A program made the translations under genes and the position numbers. Of a DNA stretch of 64,000 bases, positions 1 to 55,322 are shown in pieces; the first letter of the stretch is position 1, and every line of letters starts with the position of its first letter. Source of the DNA: an uncultured bacterium (lineage in GTDB: Bacteria; Chlamydiota; Chlamydiia; Chlamydiales; SM23-39); NCBI GenBank assembly GCA_963716985.1, contig OY970323.1:1344001-1408000 (forward strand), in the 5' to 3' direction. The notes under the pieces are model-generated. The model saw only the letters and a program-made list of their open reading frames with translations, ran no database searches and was not told where the DNA came from.

Positions 1-221
1 GTCTAAATTAAACGTCATCTCCTATGATTAACCTGCAGAACAAGAGCAACAAAGGATGTTGCAGTCGAATTATCTGGGGGTTTGAGATTTTTGGACAATT
101 TTCTCAAACCCCCGAATAAATCAAGCAATATGGTTTTCCGACAGAAATCGCTATAGAGCACAAATCAAGATTTGAACTGATTTTGTACCAGATTCAGACG
201 CGAAATTAGTCCAAACTCCAG
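1..221 (+). mobile_element. 265-bp MITE, copy 1 (first 44 bp lie outside the window)
   Basis: Matches 12579-12799 and 48573-48793 by eye; ends in right TIR GAAATTAGTCCAAACTCCAG. Confidence 0.9.
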
Positions 222-345
222 AGTGATATAAACCAGAGCATACAGCATCAAGAAAACCAACAACTTAAAGAAGCTTTAATTCTGCTCATTTAATCCAATA
301 TTGACCAGTCTTTCCTGACCAAGTGCGTAAAATTTGCGTAATTTG

Positions 346-374
346 TTGACATATGTCAAAAACTTCGTTATTAT
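346..374 (+). promoter_or_regulatory. sigma70/sigma66-type promoter with a palindromic operator, TA module 1
   Basis: TTGACA(346-351)-17 bp-TATTAT(369-374); perfect 14-bp palindrome TTGACATATGTCAA (346-359) covers the -35. Confidence 0.75.
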
Positions 375-397
375 CAAGATTTGATAAGGAAAATGGC

Positions 398-688
398 ATG
401 TCTCATTGGACTGTGGCCTTTTCTAAAGATGCGAGAAAGCAATATAAGAAACTCGAACGTAGCGGATCCAAAATCCTTGACGTAATTGACTTTTTGGCCC
501 TCGATCTCCAGAAAAATGGACCATATCTACCTTCATGGCCTCATTATAAGCCATTAGGGAAAGATCTTTTTCATTGTCATCTTCGCAAAGGACATCCTAC
601 ATATGTCGCTTGCTGGAAGATTATAGGCAAACAAATGAGACAAATTGAGGTATATTATGTCGGCTCACATGAAAATGCACCATATTAA
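398..688 (+). CDS. RelE/ParE-superfamily type II toxin
   Basis: Basic ~96-aa protein (WTVAFSKDARKQYKKL...FHCHL...IEVYYVGSHENAPY) upstream of an HTH gene; ATG 398 follows AAGGA and the promoter, while ATG 353 lies inside the promoter. Confidence 0.75.
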   Translation: MSHWTVAFSKDARKQYKKLERSGSKILDVIDFLALDLQKNGPYLPSWPHYKPLGKDLFHCHLRKGHPTYVACWKIIGKQMRQIEVYYVGSHENAPY

Positions 689-1052
689 AGATGGTCTAGC
701 TTATAAAGTTATCATCGAAATGCCAGGAAGAACAAAGAGACTTTCCTTTGTGCCAGAAAAATATCTGCACAAACTCGAAGCATTCTTGGAAAAGTATGGG
801 CAATCCGAATCGACTTCATGGGAAGAACTCGCCAGCAAACGCATTGCCAAATTTAAGAAGCAGGGCTTGGTGCTTAGAGGCGCTCGCCAGAGAGAAGGTC
901 TCTCTCAAAAAGCATTGGCCAAAAAAAGCGGCATCAATCAAGAAAATATCTCTAAACTAGAAAATGGTCAAAGACCTATTGGCGAAAAAGTAGCTAAAAA
1001 ATTGGCAAAAGCTCTACGAATCGATTGCGAGCTCTTACTTCATGCGATATAA
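657..1052 (+). CDS. XRE-family HTH antitoxin (HigA-like)
   Basis: C-terminal HTH LRGARQREGLSQKALAKKSGINQENISKLENG; overlaps the toxin end; GAGG upstream of ATG 657. Confidence 0.8.
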   Translation: MSAHMKMHHIKDGLAYKVIIEMPGRTKRLSFVPEKYLHKLEAFLEKYGQSESTSWEELASKRIAKFKKQGLVLRGARQREGLSQKALAKKSGINQENISKLENGQRPIGEKVAKKLAKALRIDCELLLHAI

Positions 1053-1094
1053 TCCCCTCAACTGGAGCTTCTATTTTTGGGCGGGTCAGTTCAA

Positions 1095-2276
1095 TCAAAA
1101 AAACCCACCCAAAGACAATAAGAAACTCTTCAGATATTTTCCTTCTTTATGAAACAGACTGATCGGATGATCATAGGCCAAGTGATGGGAGGAAAGAATT
1201 TTCACTTGTCTTTTCGCCTCTTTTGCTGCTCGAAATATTAAGGAAAGAAAATTCTCTTCCGAAACGTGATAGGAGCAGCTGCAAGTCAATAAAAGGCTGC
1301 CCTCGGGCATTTTTTTAAAAGCAAGGCTATGAAGCTCTCGATACCCTCTAATTGCAGAAGAGAGATCTTCGCGTTTTTTTGCAAAAGCCGGAGGATCTAA
1401 GATGAGAAGATCGTAATCCAGAGGTTTTTCTCTGAGAAAATCAAACACATCCTGGCAATAGAACCCATGACCGTCCGGAGACAGTTGATTGAACGAAAAG
1501 TTCTTCTTGGCAAGAGTTAGCGCCTTTTCTGAAATCTCGATCGAATCCACTTTTTTTGCGCCTCCCGCAGCAGCAGAAACGGAAAAAGCTCCGGTATAGG
1601 CAAAGGCATTTAAAACTCGTTTTTGAAAAGCAATATCCTTGATCGCAAAGCGCATCTCTCTCTGATCGAGGAAAAAACCCGTTTTTTGGCCTTGAGGGAT
1701 TTTCACAAGATAGCGCAAACCCTTTTCCAAAATTTCGATTTCGTCGGGAACATCTCCCCACAAAATCCCCTCTTTTCTCTCTAATCCTTCCAAATCCCGA
1801 ACGGACAGATCGGACTTTTCATAGATGCCTTCGATCCGAGGAAGCTTTTCTCTGAGAGTTTCAAGAAGATATTCTTTCAACCTGTCCATACCGAAGGTGG
1901 TGACCTGCAAAACAAGAACTTTTCCGTAAAGATCCACGATCAAGCCGGGCAGGAAATCCCCTTCTCCATGAATCAAACGATAACTATTGGTCTCTTGCCC
2001 TGAAAAAAGACCTTCTCGTAAAGAGATCGCTCTAGAAATGGCATTCCTGATAGCAAGATAGGGATCCTCGCTGCCAAAGCTGACCATCCGCCCAATCAAA
2101 GAACATTTTTCATTAAAATACCCCCAACCCAGCATCTCTCCTTCATGGGTAAAAACCGGAAGCAGATCTCCCTGTCTGCAGGGGGGAAAAGAAGCAATGG
2201 CGCCAGAAAAAATCCAGGGATGAAAATTGCGAACGAACGCATCTTTTTTGGGCTTTAGAATCACCTTGGCTTGCAT
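1095..2276 (-). CDS. rlmI: 23S rRNA m5C1962 methyltransferase, RlmI family
   Basis: PUA-like N-terminus HPWIFSGAI, GQKTGFFLDQRE, NAFAYTGAFS, LDPPAFAK, TCSCS. Confidence 0.85.
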   Translation of the reverse strand: MQAKVILKPKKDAFVRNFHPWIFSGAIASFPPCRQGDLLPVFTHEGEMLGWGYFNEKCSLIGRMVSFGSEDPYLAIRNAISRAISLREGLFSGQETNSYRLIHGEGDFLPGLIVDLYGKVLVLQVTTFGMDRLKEYLLETLREKLPRIEGIYEKSDLSVRDLEGLERKEGILWGDVPDEIEILEKGLRYLVKIPQGQKTGFFLDQREMRFAIKDIAFQKRVLNAFAYTGAFSVSAAAGGAKKVDSIEISEKALTLAKKNFSFNQLSPDGHGFYCQDVFDFLREKPLDYDLLILDPPAFAKKREDLSSAIRGYRELHSLAFKKMPEGSLLLTCSCSYHVSEENFLSLIFRAAKEAKRQVKILSSHHLAYDHPISLFHKEGKYLKSFLLSLGGFF

Positions 2277-2305
2277 GGAAAAACTCGCGGCTTTTGGTCG
2301 CAGAA

Positions 2306-2917
2306 TTATATCTTATGGAGCGTCAAAATAGCAAATATTCCAAAGCAGAAGATCGCAAGACCCGATATCCGGTTGATCCAAAAAATCACTTTTTGGGAAA
2401 AACTTCCTTTAAAATGGGTCAAACTCTCCGCCAGCAAAAACCACCAAAGAGAAGATCCCACAAAAATTCCAAGCCCGAGAGCGGATCCTTTCATAACCTC
2501 CCTCCATTCCAAAGTGAGACCAAATCCCGCAAAAACAACTAGGTAGGAAAGAAGCGAGAGCGGATTGGAAAGAGCAAACAAAAAACTTGTTGAAAAATCA
2601 AAAAATAACTTGTGGTCATGGAAATGATTGTTTGCCTTTGGAGGCTTATGAAGGAAGATCAAAGCGCCCAAGTAGATCAAAAAGATGCCTCCCGTCAACT
2701 TGAGCCAATATTGAATCTGAATCAAAAAATCCAAGAACAACGGGATCATGAGCGCCGCGCCAATGGCACATAAAGAATAGGCAATAGCAGCGCCAAGTCC
2801 GGAGACAAGTCCCGAAGAAAACCCCCGCCTCATCGTTCGATAGGCGCATAACATGCTAATCGGTCCGATCGGCGCGGTTAAAGAAAAGCCAATGAGCAGC
2901 CCTTTTAAGAAAAGCAT
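2306..2917 (-). CDS. LysE-family translocator
   Basis: GLLIGFSLTAPIGP N-terminus, LSNP motif, about 6 hydrophobic segments; start MLFLKG after GGAGG. Confidence 0.85.
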   Translation of the reverse strand: MLFLKGLLIGFSLTAPIGPISMLCAYRTMRRGFSSGLVSGLGAAIAYSLCAIGAALMIPLFLDFLIQIQYWLKLTGGIFLIYLGALIFLHKPPKANNHFHDHKLFFDFSTSFLFALSNPLSLLSYLVVFAGFGLTLEWREVMKGSALGLGIFVGSSLWWFLLAESLTHFKGSFSQKVIFWINRISGLAIFCFGIFAILTLHKI

Positions 2918-3107
2918 TCTTCCTCCCTGTTTTTTTCTCATAACAGGAGGGGAATTAGGAGGCAAGAAACAAAAACATAAGAATTGTTAAAAATTCCGTC
3001 CGATTCTTTCCCTCTCTCGATCCATCTCTTTTTTTTTGCAATGGGTTTCTGAAAGGGGTGGCGGCAGTATCTCCAAAGAAAAGCTAAAAGAAGTTTTTTC
3101 AAAAACC

Positions 3108-3332
3108 TTATCTTCGAAAGATCCAAAAAAAAAGATTGAGCAGCAGGGTGAAAAGAGCGCTCAAGAGCAAGCAGGTAGCAAGTGGAAAGCGAACATAGGC
3201 CCCCTCTTTTTTCCACGCAAGATCTCCAGGGAGTCTTCCCAAAGGAAACCCCATTTTCTGTCCAAAATAGATCAAGAGGCCAAGAACAACAAAAGCAAGT
3301 CCCACGAAAATCAATAGTTTCGCAATGTTCAC
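3108..3332 (-). CDS. DUF2905-like small membrane protein
   Basis: Two TM segments flanking LGRLPGDL...FPLATCLLLS; GTG start inferred. Confidence 0.75.
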   Translation of the reverse strand: MNIAKLLIFVGLAFVVLGLLIYFGQKMGFPLGRLPGDLAWKKEGAYVRFPLATCLLLSALFTLLLNLFFWIFRR

Positions 3333-3472
3333 CAAAAACCCCCTTTCTTCGAAACTTGAAAGAACAACCATTCTACTTAAGCATGAAAATGAATTCCATC
3401 TTTTGCAATTGACCGCAAAAAGAAGAAATTGTTACAATTTCCCCCAAATTAACCCTCGAAGGAGATTTTTTC

Positions 3473-3685
3473 ATGAAACAGAGAGGAACGGTCAAATGGT
3501 TCGACGAACGCAAAGGATATGGCTTTATCATTCCCGATGGAGAGAAAAAAGATATTTTTGTCCACAACACGAACATAGAAAACGCAAACCGCATTCTGGA
3601 GCCCGGCGAAGTTGTAGAGTTTGAAGTAGCGAATGGAAAAAAAGGTCCGGAAGCCATCAAAGTTCGTTCGATTACCGAAGGCTAA
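3473..3685 (+). CDS. Cold-shock protein
   Basis: GTVKWF, RNP1 KGYGFI, RNP2 IFVH, KKGPEA. Confidence 0.95.
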   Translation: MKQRGTVKWFDERKGYGFIIPDGEKKDIFVHNTNIENANRILEPGEVVEFEVANGKKGPEAIKVRSITEG

Positions 3686-3723
3686 GAAATCTCTTCTCGA
3701 AAAGATTTTGCAGCAATTTTTTT

Positions 3724-3748
3724 AAGGCCGCTTGTTATAAGCGGCCTT
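3724..3748. terminator. Probable bidirectional intrinsic terminator
   Basis: AAGGCCGCTT-gttat-AAGCGGCCTT between convergent genes. Confidence 0.7.
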
Positions 3749-3750
3749 TC

Positions 3751-4617
3751 TTATTTTGGAAAAAAACATGTGCCGGTTTTTTTCCAAATCCAAGGCACTG
3801 CGCATCCAATCCATAGCCCGAAAACTAGATTGATCGATGCCTGAAAAAAGTGGTGTCCCTCGAGGAGAGGATGCAACAGAAAAAATAAAAGAAATAGGCC
3901 CGCGATGCCGATCAAAGCACGAAGAGCGCCCTCCTTTTTATTCTTAGGATCAACGAGAAGATGCCAACGAGAAGCTAGGTAAAGAGATACCACGATGCCA
4001 AGCGAGGCGCCCGACAAAAGATAGACGGTATCGTTTCGAATAAGGAGAGATGGAATCGTGGAAACGATCGCCCCCCAGATAAAAAGCTCATTCCAAGATT
4101 TTTTCTTCGCCCATCTCTCGATCCAAGGATCCTTCTGATAGAAAAGGATCAGTAAAAAAAGGCCGACCAGCCAACCGCCCAGGACATCCATAGGGAAATG
4201 AACTCCTAAATAAATTCTAGAGAGGCTCACCCAAAAAAAGAAATTGATCGCAGCAAATCTTGTCCAAAACCCCTTTTTCCATTCTTTGAGGATCAGGCCC
4301 GCAAGCAGAATTGCTGTTTGCGCTCCCCCGCTTGGAAAGCTATATCCCGGCACATAGACCAAAGCCACGCTTGGGTCCAAGAAAAAGGGCCGAGGCGTTG
4401 TGAAAAGCATCTTTAAACCAAGATTCAACAAGCTGCTCGCGATGAAAAGATAAAACAAACGAACGCCCCATTTCCACTGCACTCCGAGCCAAATCAGCGG
4501 TATGAGGACAAAGAAAAATTCCTGCCGATCAAAAATATTTAAAAAGATAAACCATTGATCAAGAATTGGTGTTCTGAAATTGTGGAGAAAATAGATCCAA
4601 TCAAGCTGCCAGTGCAT
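3751..4617 (-). CDS. PAP2-family membrane phosphatase
   Basis: KxxxxxxRP, SFPSGGA (usual His replaced by Gly), SRIYLGVHFPMDV. Confidence 0.85.
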   Translation of the reverse strand: MHWQLDWIYFLHNFRTPILDQWFIFLNIFDRQEFFFVLIPLIWLGVQWKWGVRLFYLFIASSLLNLGLKMLFTTPRPFFLDPSVALVYVPGYSFPSGGAQTAILLAGLILKEWKKGFWTRFAAINFFFWVSLSRIYLGVHFPMDVLGGWLVGLFLLILFYQKDPWIERWAKKKSWNELFIWGAIVSTIPSLLIRNDTVYLLSGASLGIVVSLYLASRWHLLVDPKNKKEGALRALIGIAGLFLLFFLLHPLLEGHHFFQASINLVFGLWIGCAVPWIWKKTGTCFFPK

Positions 4618-4746
4618 AAAAAATTCCGTTTCCTTCCATTCGTAGATGGTTGATTCTCTTGAATCAATCTTTTCCTTGCATCCGTTTTTTGCGATACGAC
4701 TTGGAGCTAATAAGCGATATGATTAAAGCAGTATCTGAGATTTCAC

Positions 4747-5268
4747 TCACTTTTTATCAAAATACTTTTTCAAGATCGCCGGAATCTGTTCGGGAGTTAC
4801 CTGAGGATAGACATCTTCTCCTACTTTGATCACAGGAGCTAAAGCGCACATGCCCAAACAGCGTGTGGACTCGAGGGTAAAGAGGCCATCGTTAGTCGTT
4901 TCGCCAAAATCAATTCCAAGCTCTTCTTTGAGCTTCTTAGCAACATTGTCAGCTCCTCGTACGTGGCAAGCCGTCCCCGTGCAAACGCTGATGATAAAAC
5001 GGCCGATCGTCTTCAATCGGAACAGATGATAAAACGTAGCTACTCCGAACACTTTGGATGTTGGGATTTGCATCACTTGCGCAATCGCATCGAGCCTCTC
5101 TTTGCTCAGATAGCCAAAATGCAGCTGAGTCTTCTGCAATACGGCAATCAGCTGGCTCTCCGGATGGGGCTCCTTTTTGCATTTTTCAATGAAGGCTAAA
5201 ACATCTTGAGGAAGTTCTTTTTTACTTTTCTCGAGAACATCATCTTGGATTGCAGGTTTTTTGCTCAT
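4747..5268 (-). CDS. hydC: [FeFe]-hydrogenase NuoE-like [2Fe-2S] subunit (HydC/HndA)
   Basis: VCTGTACHVRG and RCLGMCALAP Cys motifs, VATFY; ATGA overlap with hydA stop. Confidence 0.9.
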   Translation of the reverse strand: MSKKPAIQDDVLEKSKKELPQDVLAFIEKCKKEPHPESQLIAVLQKTQLHFGYLSKERLDAIAQVMQIPTSKVFGVATFYHLFRLKTIGRFIISVCTGTACHVRGADNVAKKLKEELGIDFGETTNDGLFTLESTRCLGMCALAPVIKVGEDVYPQVTPEQIPAILKKYFDKK

Positions 5269-7025
5269 CGGATCCCCTTGGGAAATTTTTGATGGTAATG
5301 GGTATGGAGAAGTTTATGGGCCATCGCGCTTCCGGGCTCCTTGAGAAACTCTTTATAAAGCTTCTGAATTGCGGGATTGTCATGAGAAGTGCGCAGCTTT
5401 TTCCCTTTGTCGATCGAATAAAGCGCTTCGGCACGTTTGGCAAAAAGCTTGGGATCGAGAGTCGTATATCCCTTGGATGGATAGGGCTGCCCCCCTCCCC
5501 CGATACAGCCTCCGGGACAAGCCATGATCTCGATCACGTGAAACTCTTTTTCTCCCGACAGCACTTTATCCAGCAGAGTTTTAGCGTTGACAAGGCCGTT
5601 GGCAACTCCAATGCTTAAGGTAACATCTCCGATCGTCAAACTTTTCTCACGAAGACCCTCAACCGCCCGAACTTCCTTAAATTCAATGTTCGTCAGGACT
5701 TTTCCCGTAATTTCTTCCGCTGCAGTACGAAGGGCGGCTTCCATCACTCCCCCCGTGGTGCCGAAAATCACCCCGGCTCCGGAAACCTCTCCCCAAGGCG
5801 AATCGAATTCGCTATCGGAAAGGTGGGCAAAATCGATTCCATAGTTTTTGATCATCCATCCCAGCTCCCTCGTTGTAAGAACGGCATCGGTAAGCTTCAT
5901 ATCGTCGATCGTATGCTCGGGACGATCCATCTCAAATTTTTTCGCCACGCAGGGCATGATAGCAACGACAAAAATATCATGAGGGTTTTTCCCCATCTTC
6001 TCTGCATAATAGGTCTTGATCAGCGCCGACATCATGCTCATCGGAGAACGGCAGCTCGATGCATGCGGAATGAGTTCCGGATAGAATTTTTCCATAAAAT
6101 TGACCCAACCCGGCGAGCAGGAAGTGATCAGAGGAAGCCTTTCTTTCTTTTTAATTCTGTTCAAAAGCTCATGGGCCTCTTCCATGATGGTCAAATCGGC
6201 CGTATAGGAAGTATCAAAAATGGGGTGAAACCCTAATAATTTCAAAGCCGTTACCATCTTCCCGGTACAGGGAGTTCCGGGATCAAATCCAAAATCCTCT
6301 CCAATCGCAGCGCGAATGGACGGAGCTACCTGCACGACAACGTGTTTGCTCGGATCCGCAAGCGCGGCCCATACGGCATCGGTGTGCCTCTTTTCCTGAA
6401 AAGATGCGGTTGGGCATGCATTAATGCACTGCCCGCATTGAATGCACACCGAATCATCCATGTTCGCCCCATAAGCAGGAGTGACGACCGTATGAAAGCC
6501 CCGATAGTGCTGGCTCAAATTATTCACCCCTTGCACCTCGCTGCAAACACGAACGCAGCGGCGGCAAAGCACGCACTTGTTGGCATCGCGCACAACGGAT
6601 TTACTCGAACTCTCAATGGGATACTGCTTGCGCTTCCCCTCAAAAAGTCTCTCGCGAACTCCATATTCGTAGGCAAGATTCTGCAGCTCGCAATGGCCAT
6701 CTCTTTCGCAGGTTTGGCAATCCTTGGGGTGGTTGTCTAAAAGCAGCTCAATGATATCCCTGCGGGCTTGGCGAATTTCCGGGGAATTGGTCAGCACAAC
6801 CATCCCCTCTTCTGCAAGAGCGCTGCAAGAGGTCACAAAATATTCGACTCCCGTGACCTTCACGATACAGATCCTGCAAGAACCCTCCAAACTCAGACGA
6901 GGGTGGAAGCAAAGCCGAGGAATATGGATCCCGATTTGCTGCGCCACTTGCATGATCGTAGTTCCCGTCGGAACTTTCACCTGATTCTCATTGATAGTTA
7001 AGGTAATTTCTTTTTTTTCCGCCAT
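5265..7025 (-). CDS. hydA: Group A [FeFe]-hydrogenase catalytic subunit (HydA/HndD)
   Basis: H-cluster motifs TSCSPGW, MPCVAKKFE, EIMACPGGCIGGGGQP; N-terminal [2Fe-2S], His-ligated [4Fe-4S] (HPKDCQTC) and 2x[4Fe-4S]; C-terminal LLHTHY. Confidence 0.96.
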   Translation of the reverse strand: MAEKKEITLTINENQVKVPTGTTIMQVAQQIGIHIPRLCFHPRLSLEGSCRICIVKVTGVEYFVTSCSALAEEGMVVLTNSPEIRQARRDIIELLLDNHPKDCQTCERDGHCELQNLAYEYGVRERLFEGKRKQYPIESSSKSVVRDANKCVLCRRCVRVCSEVQGVNNLSQHYRGFHTVVTPAYGANMDDSVCIQCGQCINACPTASFQEKRHTDAVWAALADPSKHVVVQVAPSIRAAIGEDFGFDPGTPCTGKMVTALKLLGFHPIFDTSYTADLTIMEEAHELLNRIKKKERLPLITSCSPGWVNFMEKFYPELIPHASSCRSPMSMMSALIKTYYAEKMGKNPHDIFVVAIMPCVAKKFEMDRPEHTIDDMKLTDAVLTTRELGWMIKNYGIDFAHLSDSEFDSPWGEVSGAGVIFGTTGGVMEAALRTAAEEITGKVLTNIEFKEVRAVEGLREKSLTIGDVTLSIGVANGLVNAKTLLDKVLSGEKEFHVIEIMACPGGCIGGGGQPYPSKGYTTLDPKLFAKRAEALYSIDKGKKLRTSHDNPAIQKLYKEFLKEPGSAMAHKLLHTHYHQKFPKGIR

Positions 7026-7036
7026 GGCCTTGCCTC

Positions 7037-8974
7037 TTAGAGTTTTTTAACGGCATTGAAGCGACACACTTCAAAACATTTGCCGCACTGGATGCAGCGC
7101 GTTTGATCGATCAGGTGCGTCTTTTTTCTTTCTCCTGATATACAAGCGACAGGACAATTTTTTGCACACATCATACAACCCACGCATTTCTCGGGATCAA
7201 TTTCATAGTGGATCAGATGCTGGCATTTTTTCGCAGGACATGTTTTTTTAACCACATGCGCTACATATTCGTCGCGAAAATATTTAAGAGTGCTCAAAAT
7301 CGGGTTGCACGCAGATCTTCCAAGTCCGCAAAGGGATGCCTTTTTCATGAGAAGCGCCAAGCGTTCCAGCTTTTCGATATCTTCCAAAGTTCCTTTTCCT
7401 GCGATGATGCGATCCAAAATTTCTAAAATACGAACCGTTCCTTCTCTGCAGGGAGTACATTTGCCGCAAGATTCATCTTGGCAAAATTCCATAAAGAAAC
7501 GCGCCACCTGAACCATGCAATCGTCTTCATCTAAGACGATAAGGCCGCCGCTTCCCATGATCGATCCCACTGCAGCAAGTTTTTCATAATCCACAACCGT
7601 ATGCATCAAAGATGCGGGAATACACCCGCCGGCAGGGCCTCCTGTTTGAACGGCCTTCAGTTTTTTCCCCGAAACCGTTCCTCCTCCAATGTCAAAGACA
7701 ATTTCATTGAGCGTCGCTCCCATGGGAACTTCCACAAGACCTGTATGTTTGATCTTTCCCGACATGGCAAAAACTTTCGTTCCCCCGCTCCTGTCCGTAC
7801 CAATTGCTGCAAATTTCTCGCCGCCAATGGACAGAATCACAGGAACATTCGCAAGGGTTTCGACGTTATTGATGATCGTCGGCTTGCCCCAAAGTCCCTG
7901 TACTGCAGGAAAGGGAGGACGTATTCTTGGCTGTCCCCGACTTCCCTCAATGGAGTGGATCAAAGCCGTTTCTTCTCCGCAAACAAACGCTCCGGCCCCA
8001 AGACGCACTTCAAGATCATAGTTAAAATCGGAGCCAAAAATCTTTTTCCCCAGAATGCCGTGGGAGCGGCAAACGTCGATGGCTTTTTCAATACGCTCTA
8101 CAGCTAGAGGATACTCCGCGCGAATGTAGAAAAATCCTCTTTGAGCGCCGATGGCAAAACCCGCGATCATCATGCCTTCAATAACGCTAAAAGGATCGGA
8201 CTCCAGCATGCTGCGGTCCATAAACGCGCCGGGATCCCCTTCGTCCGCATTGCAAATCATGTAGCGCTCTTTTTCTTGATTGGCCCTCGCAAAGGTCCAT
8301 TTTTTTCCCGTTGGAAAACCCGCTCCTCCCCGGCCCCGAAGCTTGGAGGCGTTGATCTCTTCAATCACCCACAGCGGATCATTTTTTTGTAAAACTAAAG
8401 CAAGCGCATGAAATCCATTGGCATCGACATATTCATAGATGTTTTCCGGATCGATCAGTCCGCAATTACGAAGGGCGACTCTTGTCTGGGAGCAATAGAA
8501 GGGCAGATCTCCATAAATTTCACAATATTTGCGCATGATGGAGACTTGGCATAGCTCTTTTTGCTTCACCGATTGCTTCTGTTTTTCTTTGCGCTCTTCG
8601 TCGGTCAGCTCCGCTTCCAAAAGATACTTTTCACAAACTTTGTTTCCCAAAATATGGGAGACAAAGATCTCATGAACCGCGTCTCGGTCTACTTTTCGAT
8701 AGGTGATGTATCGATTCTGGGGAGTAAAAATCGTCACGATTGGCTCTAAACTACAGCGGCCCGTACACCCGACTCGTTTCAGCTCAATGGTTTTTTTTCC
8801 TGCCGCGGAAATGTGTTTACGAAACTCTTCATACACCAGATCGGCGCCGGAGGCATTTTCACAGGTAGCGCTTCCAATCTGGATCACAATTTTTTCGGAA
8901 ATGTTGCCCTTCGAAAGCTCCTCTTTGGCCCTTTGTTTGAGAAGTAGAAATTTTTTTTGCACTTCTTGATTCAT
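7037..8974 (-). CDS. hydB: [FeFe]-hydrogenase NuoF-like FMN/NADH subunit (HydB/HndC)
   Basis: LRGRGGAGFPTG, NADEGDPGAFMDR, GAFVCGEETAL, ESCGKCTPCREG, C-terminal 2x[4Fe-4S]; start MNQEV after GAGGGG. Confidence 0.93.
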   Translation of the reverse strand: MNQEVQKKFLLLKQRAKEELSKGNISEKIVIQIGSATCENASGADLVYEEFRKHISAAGKKTIELKRVGCTGRCSLEPIVTIFTPQNRYITYRKVDRDAVHEIFVSHILGNKVCEKYLLEAELTDEERKEKQKQSVKQKELCQVSIMRKYCEIYGDLPFYCSQTRVALRNCGLIDPENIYEYVDANGFHALALVLQKNDPLWVIEEINASKLRGRGGAGFPTGKKWTFARANQEKERYMICNADEGDPGAFMDRSMLESDPFSVIEGMMIAGFAIGAQRGFFYIRAEYPLAVERIEKAIDVCRSHGILGKKIFGSDFNYDLEVRLGAGAFVCGEETALIHSIEGSRGQPRIRPPFPAVQGLWGKPTIINNVETLANVPVILSIGGEKFAAIGTDRSGGTKVFAMSGKIKHTGLVEVPMGATLNEIVFDIGGGTVSGKKLKAVQTGGPAGGCIPASLMHTVVDYEKLAAVGSIMGSGGLIVLDEDDCMVQVARFFMEFCQDESCGKCTPCREGTVRILEILDRIIAGKGTLEDIEKLERLALLMKKASLCGLGRSACNPILSTLKYFRDEYVAHVVKKTCPAKKCQHLIHYEIDPEKCVGCMMCAKNCPVACISGERKKTHLIDQTRCIQCGKCFEVCRFNAVKKL

Positions 8975-9139
8975 TGCCCCTCTCTTCAACCATCTTTGAT
9001 CTCAAGTTTTCACATATCACGGTAAAGAATTATAATGTACTTTTTCTTTTCTCCAACTTGCTTTTCTCCTTTCGATCAGGTATGTAGAAGAAAGAGCGGT
9101 TTTGTACAACTTACGGAACCCAAGTTTTTTGGAGAAATC

Positions 9140-11515
9140 ATGGATCAAGAATTCATTCGCTTCTTTGCCACGTTGAGTTCGAAAGATATTGCACTTGTCG
9201 GAGGGAAGAATGCCTCTTTGGGAGAGATGATCACTTTTCTTGCGAAAAAAGGAATCTCCGTTCCAAAAGGGTTTGCCATTACATCTACAGCCTACCTTTT
9301 CTTTCTCAATGAAAACCATTTGGAAGAAAAAATCCTCTCTCTTTTAAAAGACTATCGAAAAAAAAAGACCACTCTTGCCAAAACGGGACAAAGAATACGC
9401 TCCCTCATCTTGCACGCATCCATCCCCCTCGAATTAGAAAAGGCCATTTTGCATGCCTATCAAGCCTTAAGTAAAGAATATCATGTCAAGGAGGCCGACG
9501 TAGCAGTGCGCAGCAGTGCAACGGCAGAGGACCTGCCGACGGCCAGCTTTGCAGGACAGCTCGAGTCCTATTTGAACATTGTCGGGAAAAAACGGCTCCT
9601 CGTTGCCTGCCGGAAATGTTTTGCCTCCCTTTTTACCGACAGGGCCATTGCCTATCGGGAAGACAAGGGGTTTGGCCATTCCAAAGTAGCGCTCTCCATC
9701 GGCGTGCAAAAAATGGTCCGTTCGGACAAAGCCGGATCCGGCGTTCTTTTCACACTCGATCCGGAATCGGGATTCCGTAAAACCATAGTCATCAATGCTT
9801 CTTTCGGCCTTGGAGAAAATGTGGTCCAAGGCAAGGTAAATCCCGATGAATATGTGCTCTTCAAGCCCTTTCTCTATAACCGGAAGATCTCTCCAATATT
9901 AAGCAAAGATCTCGGTGAAAAAGAGAAAAAACTTCTCTATTCAAAGGGAAGGGAAAAGGTCAAGAACGTAACCACTTCGCAAAAGGAGAGAAAACGCTTT
10001 GTCTTGAGCGACAAAGAAATCCTCCAGCTTGCCGTTTGGGGCCAGGCCATCGAAGAGCATTATCAAAAACCCATGGACATTGAATGGGCAAAAGATGGCA
10101 TCAGCGGCCAACTCTACATTGTTCAAGCCCGTCCGGAAACCGTGGAATCGCAAAAAGCTTCCTCTTCTTTTAAAAATTACTTCTTAAGGGAAAAGGGGAA
10201 AGTCCTTTTAGAAGGTCTTGCGATCGGAGAGGAAATCGTCACCGGAGAGGTGCAGGTCATCAAAAACATAGCGGAAATCAGGAAATTCAAAAAAGGATCT
10301 ATTCTCGTCACTCCAATGACCACGCCCGACTGGGTGCCCATCATGACGCAAGCATCCGGTATCATCACCGATCACGGAGGGAGAACCTCCCACGCTGCCA
10401 TCGTAAGCCGCGAATTGGGCGTCGCCGCTATTGTAGGAACGCGCATCGCAACCCAAAAGCTCAAAGAGGGACAAAAGATCACCCTTTGCTGTGCTGAGGG
10501 AGATCATGGATTCGTTTATGAGGGGTTTTTACAATTTGCGGAAAAAACACTCGACATCTCCCACTTGCCCTCTATAAAAACTCCCATCCTCATGAATATT
10601 TCCAGTCCGAACGCCGCTTTCCGCTGGTGGCAGCTTCCCACGGATGGCATTGGCCTTGCCCGTATTGAATTCATCATCAGCAATCTAATCAAGATCCATC
10701 CGATGGCGCTGATCCATCTCAACCGGGTGAAAGATCCAATCGTTCGAAGAAAAATTCTCTCACTTACTGCCGGCTATAAAAGCAGGGAAGAGTATTTCGT
10801 TCAAATACTTGCGATGAGCATTGCAAAGATCGCCTCCTCGCAATATCCCAAACCCGTGATCGTTCGCATGAGTGATTTTAAAAGCGTTGAATATGCCGAT
10901 CTCATCGGAGGCAAATGGTTTGAGCCGCAAGAGAGCAATCCGATGCTCGGAGTGCGCGGAGCCTCGCGCTACTATAGCGATATCTACCGCGATGCTTTTC
11001 ATCTAGAATGCCGCGCTCTAAAAAGAGCAAGAGAGGAGATGGGCATGGAGAATATCATCTTGATGATTCCTTTTTGCCGCACTCTCGAAGAAGCAGACCG
11101 CGTTCTTAACATTCTTGAAAAAAATGGCCTCAAAAGAGGAGAAAAAAACTTGCAGATCTACGTGATGTGCGAAATCCCCTCCAACGCACTTTTGGGAGAA
11201 GAGTTTGCAAAGCGCTTTGATGGTTTTTCGATCGGCTCGAATGATTTGACGCAGCTAACCCTTGGCATCGATCGCGACTGCGAAGCTTTGGCCTCTATTT
11301 TCAATCCTCGAGATGAATCGGTCAAGCGTTTGATTCGCGAGGTGATTCAAAAGGCGCACAAACACAAAGCAAAGGTGGGCATATGCGGCCAGGCTCCTTC
11401 CGACGATCCCGAATTTGCGGCTTTTCTCATACGCGAAGGCATCGATTCGATCTCACTCAATCCGGATAGTGTCCTTAAAATCATCGAAACGATCGCAAAA
11501 ATCGAAAAAAAGTAA
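9140..11515 (+). CDS. ppsA: Phosphoenolpyruvate synthase
   Basis: VGGKNASLGEM, VRSSATAEDLP, phospho-His GGRTSHAAI, FSIGSNDLTQL; ATG 9140 after GGAG. Confidence 0.95.
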   Translation: MDQEFIRFFATLSSKDIALVGGKNASLGEMITFLAKKGISVPKGFAITSTAYLFFLNENHLEEKILSLLKDYRKKKTTLAKTGQRIRSLILHASIPLELEKAILHAYQALSKEYHVKEADVAVRSSATAEDLPTASFAGQLESYLNIVGKKRLLVACRKCFASLFTDRAIAYREDKGFGHSKVALSIGVQKMVRSDKAGSGVLFTLDPESGFRKTIVINASFGLGENVVQGKVNPDEYVLFKPFLYNRKISPILSKDLGEKEKKLLYSKGREKVKNVTTSQKERKRFVLSDKEILQLAVWGQAIEEHYQKPMDIEWAKDGISGQLYIVQARPETVESQKASSSFKNYFLREKGKVLLEGLAIGEEIVTGEVQVIKNIAEIRKFKKGSILVTPMTTPDWVPIMTQASGIITDHGGRTSHAAIVSRELGVAAIVGTRIATQKLKEGQKITLCCAEGDHGFVYEGFLQFAEKTLDISHLPSIKTPILMNISSPNAAFRWWQLPTDGIGLARIEFIISNLIKIHPMALIHLNRVKDPIVRRKILSLTAGYKSREEYFVQILAMSIAKIASSQYPKPVIVRMSDFKSVEYADLIGGKWFEPQESNPMLGVRGASRYYSDIYRDAFHLECRALKRAREEMGMENIILMIPFCRTLEEADRVLNILEKNGLKRGEKNLQIYVMCEIPSNALLGEEFAKRFDGFSIGSNDLTQLTLGIDRDCEALASIFNPRDESVKRLIREVIQKAHKHKAKVGICGQAPSDDPEFAAFLIREGIDSISLNPDSVLKIIETIAKIEKK

Positions 11516-12799: not shown

Positions 12800-12923
12800 T
12801 TATGTGCAATATTTTTTTGAATAGAGTCATTCCCGATGCGGGTGATGTTCAAAAAGGCTTCGCTTCAACCGGGCTTGCTTTTGCCGGCTCCTCCCTATCG
12901 CCTTATAAAATGCCGCTCAAAAG

Positions 12924-13025
12924 CTAGTGCTCTGCCATTCTTTAATTTTAGGATAAATTGACTTGAGTTTATGCCGACCGTTGCCAAACTTATAATCCTA
13001 AATTTTAACTATGACAGAGCACTAG
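12924..13025. mobile_element. 102-bp fold-back MITE, copy 2
   Basis: CTAGTGCTCTGCCA...TGACAGAGCACTAG. Confidence 0.9.
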
Positions 13026-13387
13026 GGATGGATCCAAGTGGCTGTTTACTCTCGCTCGCTTGTTCTTTTGTTGTAGTGAAGTTTCCGCTTATCAAGAGGA
13101 GGAGGCGATCGCCCGACTCCCCCTCGTTAGAACCGGCCGAGCCCAATGAAAGCAACGGGCTTACGATCGTGCGCCTAACATTTGCCAAGCTGCCCTTTAA
13201 AGAGAGCGCAAATCGACACGGTTTTTCGCCTCGATGATGGACAACAATTAGATTGCACTTGAGTCAGATCGGTTGAAATGCTATGGTTTTTTCATAGACA
13301 AAACTTGTTCATTTTTTACATTCAAACAAAGGGAGCAGCGTTTCCTCTCATTCCTAAAGGAATTGGTTTTGCGCGCTGTCGCATAGG

Positions 13388-14659
13388 ATGAAAATAAAAA
13401 AAACATCGCTTTGGTTCATTTTGGTCGTGATCGTTTTGGGCATGGCTGCCGGCAGCCTCTCGGGAACAACAAGAGGTCTTTGGGGCTTATCATTTTATTC
13501 GGTCTATGAATTCATCGGACAGCTTTTTATTCAGGCGCTGATGCTCGTCTCCATTCCGCTCATCATCTCCTCCGTCATGACGGGTATTGCAAAAATCGCT
13601 CAAGACAACTCTTTTAAAAGGATCATTACAAAAGTCTTTGCTACCTTTTTTGCGCTCAATCTACTCGCTCTTCTGGTCGGTATACTCATGACGCTTTTGT
13701 TTCAAAAAAGCTTAACAGAGTCGGCCAATCTGCTGCTCCAAGCGAAGGGAGGCTCTTTGACAGCGCCCCCCTTGTCGAGCAGCGCGATGGACTTTAATTT
13801 TTCTCAATTTCTTTTGCAGATCATCCCTTCCAATTTGGTGGAAGCTTTTTATCATATGCGAATCATCGGCCTTGTCTTTTTTAGCCTTTTATTCGGCTAT
13901 GTAATGACCAAAATTGAAAAAAAAGCATCAGAAGTATTGCAGAATTTTTGGAAAGGCGTCTTTCAAACCATGATCGGAATTACCGAGATCATCTTGACAT
14001 TCCTTCCACTTGGAGTCTTTTGCCTCGTTGCCAAACAATTTGCAGCGACCGGACTCGAAACGCTTGGGTTTTTGGGGAGATTCTTTTTCATCGCCTCATT
14101 GGGCCTTTTCAGCTACATGTTCATCGTTTTGCCCCTCTGTCTGCTGTTTGTTGCGAAGGTGCACCCCTTACGCCACTTCAAGGCCATGCTACCGGCAATC
14201 GTCACTGCTTTTTCCACCACCTCCACCTCGGCTACCTTGCCGGTGACTATTGACTGTCTCGAAAATCGGGCCAAAGTGTCTGCAAAGCTCAGCCATGTCA
14301 TTCCTCCTCTGGGAGCCTCATTGAATATGGCGGCAACCGTTCTTTTTTCCTTCATCGCCGTTGCTTTCATCGCAAAAACCTATGGAATACCTGCATCATT
14401 ATACACCTATTCCATCATCGCATTTTTATCTCTATTTCTCTCCATGGGCGTCGCCGGAATCCCGTCGGGATGCCTAGTCATTGTGATGATCATCTTAAAA
14501 ACAATCAACCTTCCGCCGGAATCTATCGCCCTGATCATCGCCCTGGATCGTTTTCTGGACATGTTTCGCACAACCACCAACGTTTTTACCGGCAGCTGCT
14601 CTACAATCCTCGTGGCTCGCTTAGAAAAAGAAGAAGGAATATTGGAGGAAAAAAGATAA
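13388..14659 (+). CDS. Dicarboxylate/amino acid:cation symporter (DAACS)
   Basis: AFSTTSTSATLPVT, PLGASLNMAAT, GVAGIP, DRFLDMFRTTTNV. Confidence 0.92.
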   Translation: MKIKKTSLWFILVVIVLGMAAGSLSGTTRGLWGLSFYSVYEFIGQLFIQALMLVSIPLIISSVMTGIAKIAQDNSFKRIITKVFATFFALNLLALLVGILMTLLFQKSLTESANLLLQAKGGSLTAPPLSSSAMDFNFSQFLLQIIPSNLVEAFYHMRIIGLVFFSLLFGYVMTKIEKKASEVLQNFWKGVFQTMIGITEIILTFLPLGVFCLVAKQFAATGLETLGFLGRFFFIASLGLFSYMFIVLPLCLLFVAKVHPLRHFKAMLPAIVTAFSTTSTSATLPVTIDCLENRAKVSAKLSHVIPPLGASLNMAATVLFSFIAVAFIAKTYGIPASLYTYSIIAFLSLFLSMGVAGIPSGCLVIVMIILKTINLPPESIALIIALDRFLDMFRTTTNVFTGSCSTILVARLEKEEGILEEKR

Positions 14660-14687
14660 AAACAGGGCTTTTTCGATATTTAAGAAT

Positions 14688-15413
14688 TCAGCCGCTATAC
14701 GCCTCATCTTTTTTGGGCGCGGCTAAATAGATTTTCATCTTTTTCTCGAACTCTTCGATCAGATCTTGCAAATGTTTTTGCCATCTCTTTTCCTTTGCGT
14801 ATCGAGGCAGCTCTTCTTTCCATGAAGAGAGAGCCTCGTTTGGCAAATGAAAAAAATTCAAATGGCAATAATAGAGAACAGATAGAGTGTCGCTGGGAGC
14901 AAAGGCAAGATAGTTCATAAGAAAAAAATGCCATTTCTTCAGAGAAGATAGGGGCGCTTTTTGCTTTTCATATTCGGAAATATCCTTTAAAAATTGGGTT
15001 TTTTTTGTCCACAAACCGCTAGAAAAAAGAATCTCATCTTCTAAAAATTTCAGAAAAAGATCTCTTTGATTATAAGCCAAAAAAGAAAGTTCCGTCTCCA
15101 CATCCGTTCGCCTGATATACAATTCTCTCATGACATCGATCCAGGAATGGAAGATCATTCCCGCTTCAAAGAGAGAAGAGGCTCTGTTTGTCATTTCTAA
15201 AGAGGGGTACGCAACATGCGTTTTCTTGCGCGGCCAGCCTTCTAAATAGCGGATATCCGGGAAGAGCGCCCCCAGAAGAAACTCTTGGCGATTTTCTTCT
15301 TTTGAAATTCCACTCATGTCCAGCCAACGTTCGGCTAAATAAAAATGAAGGGCCGGACAGGAGGATGAAAGAGGGGTGAAAAAAAACAAAAAAACAAAGA
15401 AAAACCTCTTCAA
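14688..15413 (-). CDS. Hypothetical secreted protein, possibly zinc-dependent phospholipase C-like
   Basis: Signal peptide; early His, LGALFPDIRY, THV, FHSWID pattern. Confidence 0.5.
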   Translation of the reverse strand: MKRFFFVFLFFFTPLSSSCPALHFYLAERWLDMSGISKEENRQEFLLGALFPDIRYLEGWPRKKTHVAYPSLEMTNRASSLFEAGMIFHSWIDVMRELYIRRTDVETELSFLAYNQRDLFLKFLEDEILFSSGLWTKKTQFLKDISEYEKQKAPLSSLKKWHFFLMNYLAFAPSDTLSVLYYCHLNFFHLPNEALSSWKEELPRYAKEKRWQKHLQDLIEEFEKKMKIYLAAPKKDEAYSG

Positions 15414-25575: not shown

Positions 25576-26982
25576 ATGTCGCGCCCGAAAAGTAGAGTTC
25601 TTAGCGTTTTTGTGCTTTGCATGATCAATGTCGCTGCCATTTGTAATATTGCCAATTTGACCTTCACTGCCCAAAAGGGATTTTCTTCTCTTTTTTATTA
25701 TGCCCTCTCTTCCCTGATTTTCTTCATTCCCGTTGGACTTGCCTCTGCAGAGCTCGCCTCCGGATGGCCTGAGCGCGGAGGGGTTTATACCTGGGTAAGA
25801 GAAGCACTTGGGGAAAGGGCCGGTTTTGTTGCGATATGGCTGCAATGGGTCGAAAACGTGATCTGGTATCCGACCCTTCTTGCTTTTGTTGCAGGAACGT
25901 TTGCCTATATTTTCAATCCTTCCTTAGCGGAAAATAAATTGTATATCATGACCGTCGTGCTCGTCACCTTTTGGCTGATCACTTTTTTGAATACATTAGG
26001 CATGAGAATTTCTGCATGGATCAGTACGCTCTGCGTTCTCTTTGGAACGCTTTTCCCGGGACTTTTTTTGATCTCTATGGGCATTGGACATCTCGCATCG
26101 GGAGGAATTTCTCAAATATCCTTTTCGTCAGGCTCTCTCATCCCGTCGCTTGCAAATTTTGATCACATTTCCGTGCTTGCCGCAGTACTGCTCTCTCTTG
26201 CGGGGCTCGAAATGTCCGGCGTTCATGCGAAAGAGGTCGAAAATCCCCAAAAAGATTATCCGAAGGCCATCTTTTCCTCCTCCATCATCATCTTCGGCCT
26301 GCTCTCGCTGGCCTCGCTCTCCATCGCACTGATCGTTCCCAAAGAGAAGTTAGAGCTTGCATCGGGAACCATCGAAGCCTTTCGCCTCTATTTTGATTCC
26401 TACGGAATCTCCTGGATGCTGCCTCTTGTTGCTTTTCTCATCGTTCTGGGATCGATTGGACTGATTAGCACCTGGACCATTGGACCGACCAAGGGGCTTT
26501 TGGCAACTGCACGCCATGGAGATTTGCCTCCTTTTTTACAAAAGACCAATAAAAAAGGCATGCCTGTTTCCATTCTTTTTATCCAGGCATCGGTCGTAAC
26601 CCTTTTGTCCTTTACTTTCTTCCTCATGCCAACTGTCAGCTCCACCTATCGTCTTCTTTTTTATTTGGCAGCCCAGCTCTACCTCGTCATGTATGTTTTG
26701 CTATTCCTCTCGCTTCTTGTCTTACGCTACAAAAAACCCGAAGTGGAGCGCCCCTTTAAAGTTCCTTTTGGAAAAGCGGGCGTTTGGATCCTTGCCTCCC
26801 TGGGAATATTGGGATCTCTGTTTGCCATCGGGTGCAGCTTCATCCCCTCAGGTGACATCGAAAAAACCCATCGCGTATTTTTTGTGCTTTTTTTAGCGGG
26901 AGGCATCTTCCTTTTTTGCTTCATCCCTCTCATGATTCATAGCATGAGAAAACCTTCCTGGCACATTTTTAAAGAAGAGTGA
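25576..26982 (+). CDS. APC-superfamily amino acid antiporter (GadC-like)
   Basis: AELASGWPERGGVYTWV, W-YPT, AGLEMS, NPQKDYPKA; about 12 TM. Confidence 0.85.
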   Translation: MSRPKSRVLSVFVLCMINVAAICNIANLTFTAQKGFSSLFYYALSSLIFFIPVGLASAELASGWPERGGVYTWVREALGERAGFVAIWLQWVENVIWYPTLLAFVAGTFAYIFNPSLAENKLYIMTVVLVTFWLITFLNTLGMRISAWISTLCVLFGTLFPGLFLISMGIGHLASGGISQISFSSGSLIPSLANFDHISVLAAVLLSLAGLEMSGVHAKEVENPQKDYPKAIFSSSIIIFGLLSLASLSIALIVPKEKLELASGTIEAFRLYFDSYGISWMLPLVAFLIVLGSIGLISTWTIGPTKGLLATARHGDLPPFLQKTNKKGMPVSILFIQASVVTLLSFTFFLMPTVSSTYRLLFYLAAQLYLVMYVLLFLSLLVLRYKKPEVERPFKVPFGKAGVWILASLGILGSLFAIGCSFIPSGDIEKTHRVFFVLFLAGGIFLFCFIPLMIHSMRKPSWHIFKEE

Positions 26983-41077: not shown

Positions 41078-41366
41078 GAAAGCCCCTATTACCACTACAT
41101 TCACTAACTAGTATGGGAAATAATTAATATGCAACAACTATTTGGATCGCTGATCGGGCAATTTTTTCGGCGTTATTCATAGGAGACCTATCAATGCTGC
41201 CAACTGAAGGATTCGAGGGCTGTGCTCTCGGGCTCTTTCCAAAGGACTGTGTCCTTCGGGGGAACTATGGGCACGCAATGACCAGGAAGAGCTGCCCATT
41301 GCGGAAACAAAACTAATCGGAAAAGATAAAACGGGTTTTTCAGAAAAAAACAGATGTGTCTTAAAA

Positions 41367-42539: not shown

Positions 42540-42806
42540 ATGCACCTCCGATTGTTTCTAAATGTAATTATTAGAATTCGCAATAACATGCAACATTTTT
42601 TTTAAATTTGTCATGAGATTCGAAAAAAAGCCCCACTTTTGTGCAACGGGATCTTTCCTGCAGAGCAAAAATTAAAAAAGAAAATTGAAAAAAGGGGCCT
42701 TTCCTCTTCGGAGAAGATCTTTTTCCTGAGAAAAAACATCTGGAAGAACAAACCCCCTTCCTGCTATGATTTTTATTTAGACTCCTAAAATAACCGGTCT
42801 CTTCCT

Positions 42807-50934: not shown

Positions 50935-51093
50935 AACGGACTCCTGGATTTTTTCCTCAATCGTTTTTTTACATTTTATTTTTTTAATACGAAATAATTT
51001 ATTAATTCGCAATAACATTAAAATATTTGCTGTAAGATAATTTTATTTTAATGTACGCGTTCACGGGGGGTAGTGGGGGATGGGGTTAAAATC

Positions 51094-51233: not shown

Positions 51234-51299
51234 TATAATGGTCCCAGAAATTTAGACACAGGTCTAAGCTTATAACCTCTTAAAAAAAAGAGGTCAAAA

Positions 51300-55313: not shown

Positions 55314-55322
55314 TAATCAGAA

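Follow-up and report, generated by a model that had tools for sequence, protein, structure and literature searches.

A trimeric [FeFe]-hydrogenase operon of probable confurcating type in an environmental lineage of the Chlamydiota

In the 64,000-nucleotide stretch of contig OY970323.1 analysed here (called the window, at its full length), three minus-strand genes, hydB, hydA and hydC, lie divergent from ppsA, the gene for a phosphoenolpyruvate (PEP) synthase. We consider it probable that hydBAC is the full gene set for a heterotrimeric [FeFe]-hydrogenase of group A3 (HydABC/BfuABC) in an environmental member of the Chlamydiota, that the enzyme most likely works by confurcation and that it is a trait of its lineage. 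The analysis was based on the list of open reading frames (ORFs) with their translations and on Pfam and NCBIfam profile scans, which confirmed the three-gene arrangement opposite ppsA that a first-pass annotation of this DNA had described. The hydrogenase genes are the following.

7037..8974, minus strand: hydB (bfuB), NuoF-like subunit for flavin mononucleotide (FMN) and reduced nicotinamide adenine dinucleotide (NADH), 645 aa; from Pfam/NCBIfam, PDB matches and signature residues
5265..7025, minus strand: hydA (bfuA), catalytic [FeFe]-hydrogenase subunit of the M3 type, 586 aa; from Pfam/NCBIfam, motifs and PDB matches
4747..5268, minus strand: hydC (bfuC), NuoE-like [2Fe-2S] subunit with Cx4C...Cx3C, 173 aa; from Pfam/NCBIfam and sequence

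The genes form a tight operon in the order hydB, hydA, hydC, with 11 bp from the hydB stop to hydA and an overlap of 4 bp between hydC and hydA, and all three reading frames are intact. The start of hydA is preceded by GAGGCAAGG. For hydB, the most likely start, judged from its sequence context, is the ATG at 8974 behind GAGAGGGG rather than the TTG at 8989 used in the ORF list (7037-8989, 650 aa).

HydA shows the Pfam layout of an M3-type catalytic subunit, comprising Fer2_4, NADH-G_4Fe-4S_3, a 2x[4Fe-4S] domain, Fe_hyd_lg_C (314 bits) and Fe_hyd_SSU. It matches the NCBIfam profile NF040763 (FeFe_hydrog_A6) with 846.2 bits (cutoff 765) over positions 1-571 of 571, and its match to TIGR02512 (508 bits, cutoff 406) together with its H-cluster motifs, one of them with a serine variant, places it in group A of the [FeFe]-hydrogenases. 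These motifs read TSCSPGW (L1), MPCVAKKFE (L2) and EIMACPGGCIGGGGQP (L3). The consensus sequences are TSCCPxW for L1, MPCxxKxxE for L2 and ExMxCxxGCxxGGGQP for L3. The full set of H-cluster motifs claimed by the first-pass annotation is therefore exact for the canonical L2 and L3, but not for L1, which is TSCSPGW instead of TSCCPxW. The serine in question occurs without exception in the 29 aligned relatives and also in the solved chain 7q4v_A; all cluster-ligand cysteines of HydA are likewise invariant across 29 sequences. In the HMMER alignment, the serine falls on residue 300 of Clostridium pasteurianum-type chains, in whose numbering residue 299 is the proton-relay cysteine and residue 300 a cubane ligand. 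A full-text literature search for 'TSCSP' returned unrelated papers only, and the review PMC8924675 is silent on the L1 motif. Zheng and Huang (PMC11406978) give the P1-P3 motifs of [FeFe]-hydrogenases and describe a serine at the L1 position as common in four of five A3 sub-types. Since the serine occurs in the relatives, in 7q4v_A and in published A3 sub-types, it is the normal state for this class rather than a defect.

HydC is a NuoE-like, thioredoxin-like [2Fe-2S] protein (PF01257, 172 bits). HydA thus adjoins both a NuoF-like HydB and a NuoE-like HydC, which is the composition of the group A3/HydABC (Bfu) trimers. Among solved structures, HydA is matched best by 8a6t_A ('Electron bifurcating hydrogenase subunit HydA1', 593 bits, E 6.9e-177), then by 7q4v_A (581 bits). 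For HydB, the best matches are 9n5u_B (NfnB, 714 bits) and 7q4v_B (706 bits), followed by 9bov_B, 7t2r_B and 8oh5_B (range 696-714 bits), with HydB of 8a6t at 651 bits. The closest solved chains of both subunits all come from bifurcating complexes or their kin. Of the two solved HydABC complexes, 7q4v is presumably that of Acetobacterium woodii, and 8a6t is the Thermoanaerobacter kivui enzyme (PMC10482914). Both align with the window proteins over the full length and have the same cofactor motifs, down to TSCSPGW in 7q4v_A. They differ in belonging to a Bacillota-type operon with hydC upstream, as judged from Bacillota loci, and in a HydB with GGPSG and a 4-Cys N-terminal domain.

The gene order was compared across the best 80 of at least 600 stretches encoding a relative (603 matched), which were found by a search of genome contigs. 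In the 39 loci whose HydA is at least 60% identical to that of the window (the best being L001 with 73% and L021 with 72%), hydB lies directly upstream of hydA in 27 of the 28 with room for it, hydC lies directly downstream in 35/35, and an upstream hydC was found in 0/28. The 41 loci below 60%, almost all of them from Bacillota, have hydB directly upstream in 35/35, hydC directly downstream in 1/39 and hydC upstream in 31/35. The order hydB-hydA-hydC (BAC) of the window is that of the 'sub-type III' BfuABC, which Zheng and Huang (2024; PMC11406978) called previously unreported. BfuABC of this sub-type from Hydrogenedentota also shares with the window the serine at the fifth P1 position and the M3-type HydA; it differs in the N-terminal [2Fe-2S] domain of BfuB, which is doubled there and single in HydB of the window.

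Some of these loci deserve a remark of their own. The single exception among the 28, L023 (Pirellulales, 1-6700), has hydA-hydC, and no hydB was detected in the 6.7 kb upstream. L021 (regions 8155-9971 and 12849-14813), from a metagenome-assembled genome (MAG) of the chlamydial clade, has feoB directly downstream of hydC; its hydB appears as two overlapping ORFs with query residues 366-411 unmatched, which suggests a frameshift or a fault of the assembly. The nearest non-chlamydial hydBAC among the 80 loci are those of L002 (8053-12345, Coxiellaceae) and L001 (2-3929, 'Gammaproteobacteria bacterium'), with HydA 68-73% identical.

HydB consists of Complex1_51K, NADH_4Fe-4S and two C-terminal Fer4 motifs according to Pfam. 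Its signature residues were compared in a sample of 60 sequences (the window and 59 loci with a complete 5' end), 34 of them Bacillota-type and 26 BAC-type. Three diagnostic differences between the beta subunits of bifurcating and non-bifurcating enzymes have been described by Losey et al. (2020; PMC7311640). HydB of the window has, in the stretch DEGDPGAFMD, alanine at position 232 (Thermotoga maritima numbering), where bifurcating enzymes have Ala or Glu, and methionine at position 234, the alanine and the methionine being present in 60/60 sampled HydB, and it has phenylalanine, not tyrosine, at T. maritima position 367 near the FMN (GAGAFVCGEE). Two CxxCxxCxxxC motifs at 7064-7186, with Fer4 matches at residues 595-647 of the listed 650-aa ORF, form the C-terminal 2x[4Fe-4S] domain (B3 and B4 clusters). 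The hinge site (B2 [2Fe-2S] or zinc) is represented by GGPAGGC and H-x5-C-x4-C (AHVVKKTCPAKKC), a ligand set described for the B2 cluster of NiFe-HydB and assigned by others as zinc (PMC8880783, PMC10482914). Both the ADEGDPGAFM motif and the C-terminal 2x[4Fe-4S] domain, on which the first-pass annotation had relied as marks of bifurcating enzymes, were hence found in HydB, and both are among the published marks (PMC7311640). An A3 bifurcating-type character of hydBAC is supported by these sequence signatures.

The N-terminal part of HydB requires a closer description. Most BAC-type HydB proteins measure about 727 aa and possess two N-terminal thioredoxin-like domains, of which the first has three conserved cysteines and the second, with Cx4C...Cx3C, corresponds in the alignment to the one N-terminal domain that Bacillota HydB has. 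HydB of the window (about 640 aa) has the first domain only, with three cysteines (C38, C70 and C74) and isoleucine at the first ligand position. The second domain, of about 85 residues, is present in L006, L013, L020 and L030, has lost its cysteine ligands in L031 and is deleted in the window as well as in L022 (chlamydial clade), L002 (Coxiellaceae) and L027 (Holophagaceae); for L021 and for L009 (Anoxychlamydiales), the same deletion is implied by unbroken tblastn alignments. As ATG-only start calling shortened some HydB N-termini, the first domain may be more frequent than counted. In the 50%-identity library used for the HydB search, one 727-aa entry (P0365, 63% identity) stands for the whole BAC clade. 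The remaining domain of the window is matched best by StnB (8oh5_B, E 3e-10), and its three-Cys pattern recurs in 8oh5_B, 9n5u_B and 9bov_B. StnB has been described as containing a single [2Fe-2S] cluster and, at its N-terminus, a thioredoxin-like domain termed a hallmark of the bifurcating module (PMC10482914). StnB also shares the NuoF core, the hinge and the C-terminal ferredoxin domain with HydB of the window; it differs in that its partner in the StnABC transhydrogenase is a GltD/NuoG fusion and not a hydrogenase, with electrons passing among NADPH, NAD+ and ferredoxin (PMC10482914). The role of the N-terminal cluster is disputed, as it is a dead end in one view and part of the gate in another (PMC8880783, PMC11406978), and the loss of the domain in chlamydial and Coxiellaceae HydB bears on this dispute.

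Several observations weigh against our explanation, and the first of them concern bifurcation itself. The NCBIfam name of the HydA family (NF040763) is merely that of an 'NADH-dependent' [FeFe] hydrogenase of group A6. In the SLBB region, where GGPSG is the third of the diagnostic features of Losey et al., HydB of the window reads GGPAG, compared with GGPSG in 34/34 Bacillota-type HydB; GGPAG is found in 18/26 BAC-type HydB and is therefore a one-residue variant of the clade. The canonical 4-Cys N-terminal [2Fe-2S] domain (B5), carried by 33/34 Bacillota-type and 19/26 BAC-type HydB, is absent from HydB of the window. Both points depart from the picture implied by the first-pass annotation, and in one published view the full HydB cluster set is needed for bifurcation (PMC11406978). 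The family name, the GGPAG and the missing domain would fit a non-bifurcating, NADH-only hydrogenase such as Syntrophomonas wolfei Hyd1ABC or Syntrophus aciditrophicus HydAB, which needs a very low H2 partial pressure and likewise places a NuoF-like beta subunit beside a group A HydA (PMC7311640). However, HydB of the window has the bifurcating-type Ala/Met and Phe at the NADH/FMN sites, where non-bifurcating enzymes have Thr/Ser, then Lys/Ser/Ala, and Tyr (PMC7311640), and it keeps the C-terminal [4Fe-4S] pair, the absence of which marks the S. wolfei enzyme (PMC11406978). The 3-Cys domain that is kept resembles that of StnB, a subunit of a bifurcating complex (PMC10482914). We thus regard an NADH-only enzyme as improbable.

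In the confurcating enzyme that we favour, HydA would carry the H-cluster and an M3-type iron-sulfur chain, HydB would bind FMN together with NAD(H), its hinge site and C-terminal 2x[4Fe-4S] domain connecting the flavin with ferredoxin, and HydC would hold a [2Fe-2S] cluster next to the flavin. H2 would then be made by the joint oxidation of NADH and reduced ferredoxin, and its production would provide an electron sink for a fermentative lifestyle in oxygen-poor surroundings. The flux may also run the other way. The closest solved relatives are from acetogens, which use such enzymes to take up H2. Enzymes of this class are reversible, as has been stated for the chlamydial ones (PMC7449678), and a Legionellales symbiont of an anaerobic amoeba has been proposed to oxidise host H2, but by means of a [NiFe] enzyme (bioRxiv 10.64898/2026.04.11.717937). 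A chlamydia that mainly oxidises H2, for example from host hydrogenosomes, to obtain NADH and reduced ferredoxin would accord with these points. On the other side, nothing that could take up the reductant, such as a terminal reductase or a CO2-fixation gene, was found in the window, and the authors who studied Anoxychlamydiales detected no H2-consuming pathways there and favoured production (PMC7449678). Hence, uptake as the main function appears unlikely to us. The anaerobic, H2-evolving and bifurcating chlamydia proposed in the first-pass annotation stays at the level of inference.

The window encodes further proteins that are compatible with a fermentative life, without being a proof of it, namely a flavodiiron protein, a sugar porter, a class I aldolase, an aspartate 4-decarboxylase and amino-acid exchangers. 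No hydE, hydF, hydG, pfo or ferredoxin gene was found within its 64 kb, which is a further point against our explanation. The Pfam scans covered 41 ORFs (9 + 32); these comprise all ORFs of 150 aa or more that do not lie inside a larger scanned gene. Searching for motifs gave no stand-alone CxxCxxCxxxC ferredoxin in the window and, in its ORFs of at least 150 aa, no radical-SAM CxxxCxxC apart from a chance match in a YicC-like gene. The absence of hydEFG from the window, as given in the first-pass annotation, was therefore borne out by both approaches, and the sequence up to 10 kb from hydBAC in L001, L002, L009, L021 and L022 contains no maturase gene either. If the genome as a whole had no maturases, no active H-cluster could be made and the operon would be a non-functional relic. 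This is very unlikely in view of the three intact frames and the conserved cluster-ligand cysteines of HydA. Moreover, Anoxychlamydiales possess a trimeric hydrogenase cluster, a separate hydEFG cluster and pfo (PMC7449678), so that an absence of maturases near hydBAC is to be expected.

We next turn to the origin of the operon. The chlamydial nature of the contig, which the first-pass annotation had assumed, is borne out by the marker BipA (42807-44633) and by the HydA trees. Among the 120 matches listed for BipA, the only marker used for placement, relatives reach 94% identity, and the organism-named ones are Chlamydiota in 8/8 cases. Since the best of these named relatives is only 78% identical, the window probably stems from a chlamydial family other than that of the Anoxychlamydiales-type relatives, as far as this one protein sequence can tell. 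The closest HydA among the listed matches is 88% identical. Of the 120 matches listed for HydA, 19 are organism-named (13 Chlamydiota, 3 Gammaproteobacteria and one each of Lentisphaerae, Planctomycetota and Hydrogenedentota). A HydA tree of 83 rows was built under LG+G4 from the window, 42 of the 120 listed matches (all 19 organism-named and 23 others) and 40 loci, leaving out L050, which has an in-frame stop, and partial HydA matches; a second tree of 53 rows was built under the C20 mixture model with a quick search. A clade of 44 rows unites chlamydial with Gammaproteobacteria/Coxiellaceae rows, with support by the Shimodaira-Hasegawa-like approximate likelihood ratio test (SH-aLRT) of 100 (LG+G4) and 99 (C20). 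Nested in it is a clade of 33 rows, supported by 90 (LG+G4) and 92 (C20), that contains the window and every one of the 13 Chlamydiota-named rows but no row named for another phylum. The HydA phylogeny proposed as a check in the first-pass annotation thus places the window inside a chlamydial clade; the support of this chlamydia-only clade, however, lies under the 95 mark and belongs with the points against our explanation. Within this clade, the window HydA groups with three relatives (SH-aLRT 99), apart from the subclade of Anoxychlamydiales, and Hydrogenedentota rows form the next-nearest group in the tree.

A non-chlamydial hydrogenase segment, brought in by mis-assembly or recent import, could be suspected because Gammaproteobacteria MAGs are among the organism-named HydA relatives with 73-74% identity and because the guanine-cytosine (GC) content of hydA, 0.50, is the highest of the genes measured (hydB 0.47; other window genes mean 0.455, standard deviation 0.018). 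Against this, HydA lies among chlamydial rows in the tree, the hyd genes are mostly within the range of the other window genes, and their GC content at third codon positions is within 2 standard deviations of these. In addition, relatives of HydA (84%), BipA (90%) and PpsA (81%) occur on 73,094-bp contigs of the Joint Genome Institute (JGI), whose shared size and source suggest the same linkage there. We therefore judge a foreign segment to be extremely improbable. From the tree placement together with the near-typical base composition, the operon is most readily understood as an established trait of a chlamydial lineage, so that hydBAC would represent a chlamydia-specific branch of the widespread non-Bacillota BAC clade and not a recent import; we hold this with the same confidence as the explanation of which it forms part.

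Trimeric [FeFe]-hydrogenases have been published for Anoxychlamydiales (Stairs et al. 2020, PMC7449678) and for MCF-E and Simkaniaceae MAGs (Kostlbacher et al. 2021, PMC8242063), so the operon of the window is a further example. The statement of the first-pass annotation that H2 metabolism has been described for anoxic chlamydiae was correct and can be extended to MCF-E and Simkaniaceae MAGs; the supplement of PMC8242063 contains a hydrogenase list, and a figure legend there also names the family SM23-39. The window shares with these published systems the phylum, the three subunits and a HydA 69-72% identical, and rows named Anoxychlamydiales stand in the same 33-row HydA clade. HydB of the Anoxychlamydiales locus L009 is 68% identical and likewise lacks the second N-terminal domain. 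The differences are that the window belongs to its own subclade with three relatives (see above) and that ppsA, directly divergent here, is 7 kb off in L009. With the window, the chlamydial lineages that carry a trimeric [FeFe]-hydrogenase grow by one that stands apart from the Anoxychlamydiales subclade, which supports the published opinion that an anaerobic metabolism linked to H2 is widespread in environmental chlamydiae. The HydB domain loss and the recurrence of ppsA may interest specialists, and neither changes the picture of the enzyme.

A more far-reaching idea is that a streamlined hydBAC has been exchanged between unrelated intracellular bacteria of oxygen-poor hosts and that, in chlamydiae, it forms a conserved pyruvate/PEP-H2 module with ppsA. 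In the joint clade of chlamydial and Coxiellaceae/Gammaproteobacteria hydBAC (SH-aLRT 99-100), the loss of the 4-Cys N-terminal domain from HydB, seen in both groups, would be a shared derived trait. We offer this idea tentatively and think it rather unlikely; if true, the cluster loss in an exchanged hydrogenase would be a natural test of the need for that cluster in bifurcation.

The features on either side of the operon are listed here.

8975..9139, no strand: divergent intergenic region between hydB and ppsA, 165 bp; from the choice of start codons
9009..9036, plus strand: predicted Sigma-70-like promoter TTCACA-16-TATAAT, 11/12 matches, facing ppsA; from a promoter-pattern scan
9140..11515, plus strand: ppsA, phosphoenolpyruvate synthase (pyruvate, water dikinase), 791 aa; from NCBIfam and the choice of start codon
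3751..4617, minus strand: PAP2-family phosphatase gene, 129 bp downstream of hydC; from Pfam

PpsA is a full-length PEP synthase (NF005057, 1124 bits, cutoff 598), and its closest listed relative is 81% identical. Its most likely start, again by sequence context, is the ATG at 9140 behind GGAG rather than position 9035 of the ORF list, and in the ORF as listed the NCBIfam profile match begins only at residue 37-41. With hydB starting at 8974 and ppsA at 9140, the divergent gap measures 165 bp, in agreement with the distance of about 165 bp given in the first-pass annotation. Of the best 80 loci, only two (L022 and L009), both of the chlamydial HydA clade, have ppsA at a distance of up to 10 kb from hydBAC, so that within this set its recurrence near hydBAC is confined to the chlamydial branch. 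In L022 it is co-directional with hydBAC, with a small opposite-strand S-adenosylmethionine (AdoMet) decarboxylase gene in between, in L009 it is divergent and 7 kb upstream, and L021, of the same clade, has no ppsA within 10 kb of hydBAC. By sequence comparison, the linkage of ppsA and hydBAC in the chlamydial lineage is real. A wider occurrence is suggested by five pairs of PpsA and HydA relatives on contigs of equal size and the same source (P0003/P0245, P0002/P0247, P0004/P0248, P0053/P0267 and P0032/P0364).

Whether the two transcription units are regulated together is a different matter. The sole strong promoter-like site of the gap (11/12 matches) faces ppsA, promoter-like sites are not enriched region-wide (7 observed, shuffle mean 8.4), and no shared operator-like element stood out in the gap between hydB and ppsA. 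Since the distance and orientation of ppsA vary among the chlamydial relatives, co-regulation is unproven, and the case for it is weak. Of the co-regulation of pyruvate/PEP flux and H2 metabolism considered possible in the first-pass annotation, the linkage itself thus stood, as it recurs in chlamydial relatives, while the variable geometry, the single promoter and the lack of a shared operator in the gap lend little support to a common control.

The leaders of both genes were also considered as regulatory RNAs. In the ppsA leader (9043-9139), positions 9048-9056 (UUUCUCCAA) can pair perfectly with 9129-9137 over the ribosome-binding site, and a U-tract hairpin occupies 9098-9130; the candidate was rejected, the fold being no more stable than shuffled sequences (z -1.21). 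The hydB leader was rejected as well, being less stable than shuffles (z +1.42). The first 12 nucleotides of hydB (8963-8974) and ppsA (9140-9151) form a near-identical inverted pair (encoding MNQE and MDQE), which is probably due to chance. Downstream of the operon, no convincing terminator was seen in the 129 bp between hydC and the PAP2 gene, a homolog of which likewise follows hydBAC in L022. Plus-strand ORFs within the hyd genes (e.g. 7689-8021) are conserved and were rejected as genes; their matches to all loci stem only from the conservation of the coding sequence on the opposite strand.

The remaining window contains a number of further features. The aspartate 4-decarboxylase gene (NF006755, 667 bits, cutoff 321) stands beside genes for a class I aldolase and a sugar porter (34613-36211, also 13388-14659 and 25576-26982), and there are also genes for a GltP-like symporter and for a GadC-like amino-acid antiporter, which scores below its cutoffs. 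From sequence similarity, the decarboxylase and the transporters may hint at decarboxylation-linked energy conservation or pH homeostasis. Flavodiiron proteins are O2- or NO-detoxifying enzymes typical of anaerobes and microaerophiles. The one encoded at 55622-56836 has ODP and flavodoxin domains, with a flavorubredoxin-type NO reductase as its best NCBIfam match (402 bits, below the cutoff of 635). The low-GC segment 32000-34000 (0.368) includes a gene for a protein with helix-turn-helix and SocA/Panacea antitoxin domains (32457-33233). An Rfam scan of the window returned one tRNA and nothing else; this tRNA-Asn (55322-55395) and an IS4/Tn5-family transposase gene (52472-53776) lie within 50000-55400, where the GC skew changes its sign locally and reaches up to +0.165 at 52-54 kb. 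Three paralogous outer-membrane proteins of the Pfam family Legionella_OMP are encoded at 39992-41104, 41424-42545 and 49825-51018 (E about 1e-23 to 1e-25), and the gene at 48865-49740 encodes a protein of 291 aa that has no NCBIfam match and carries a eukaryote-like ubiquitin domain (PF00240, E 7e-11).

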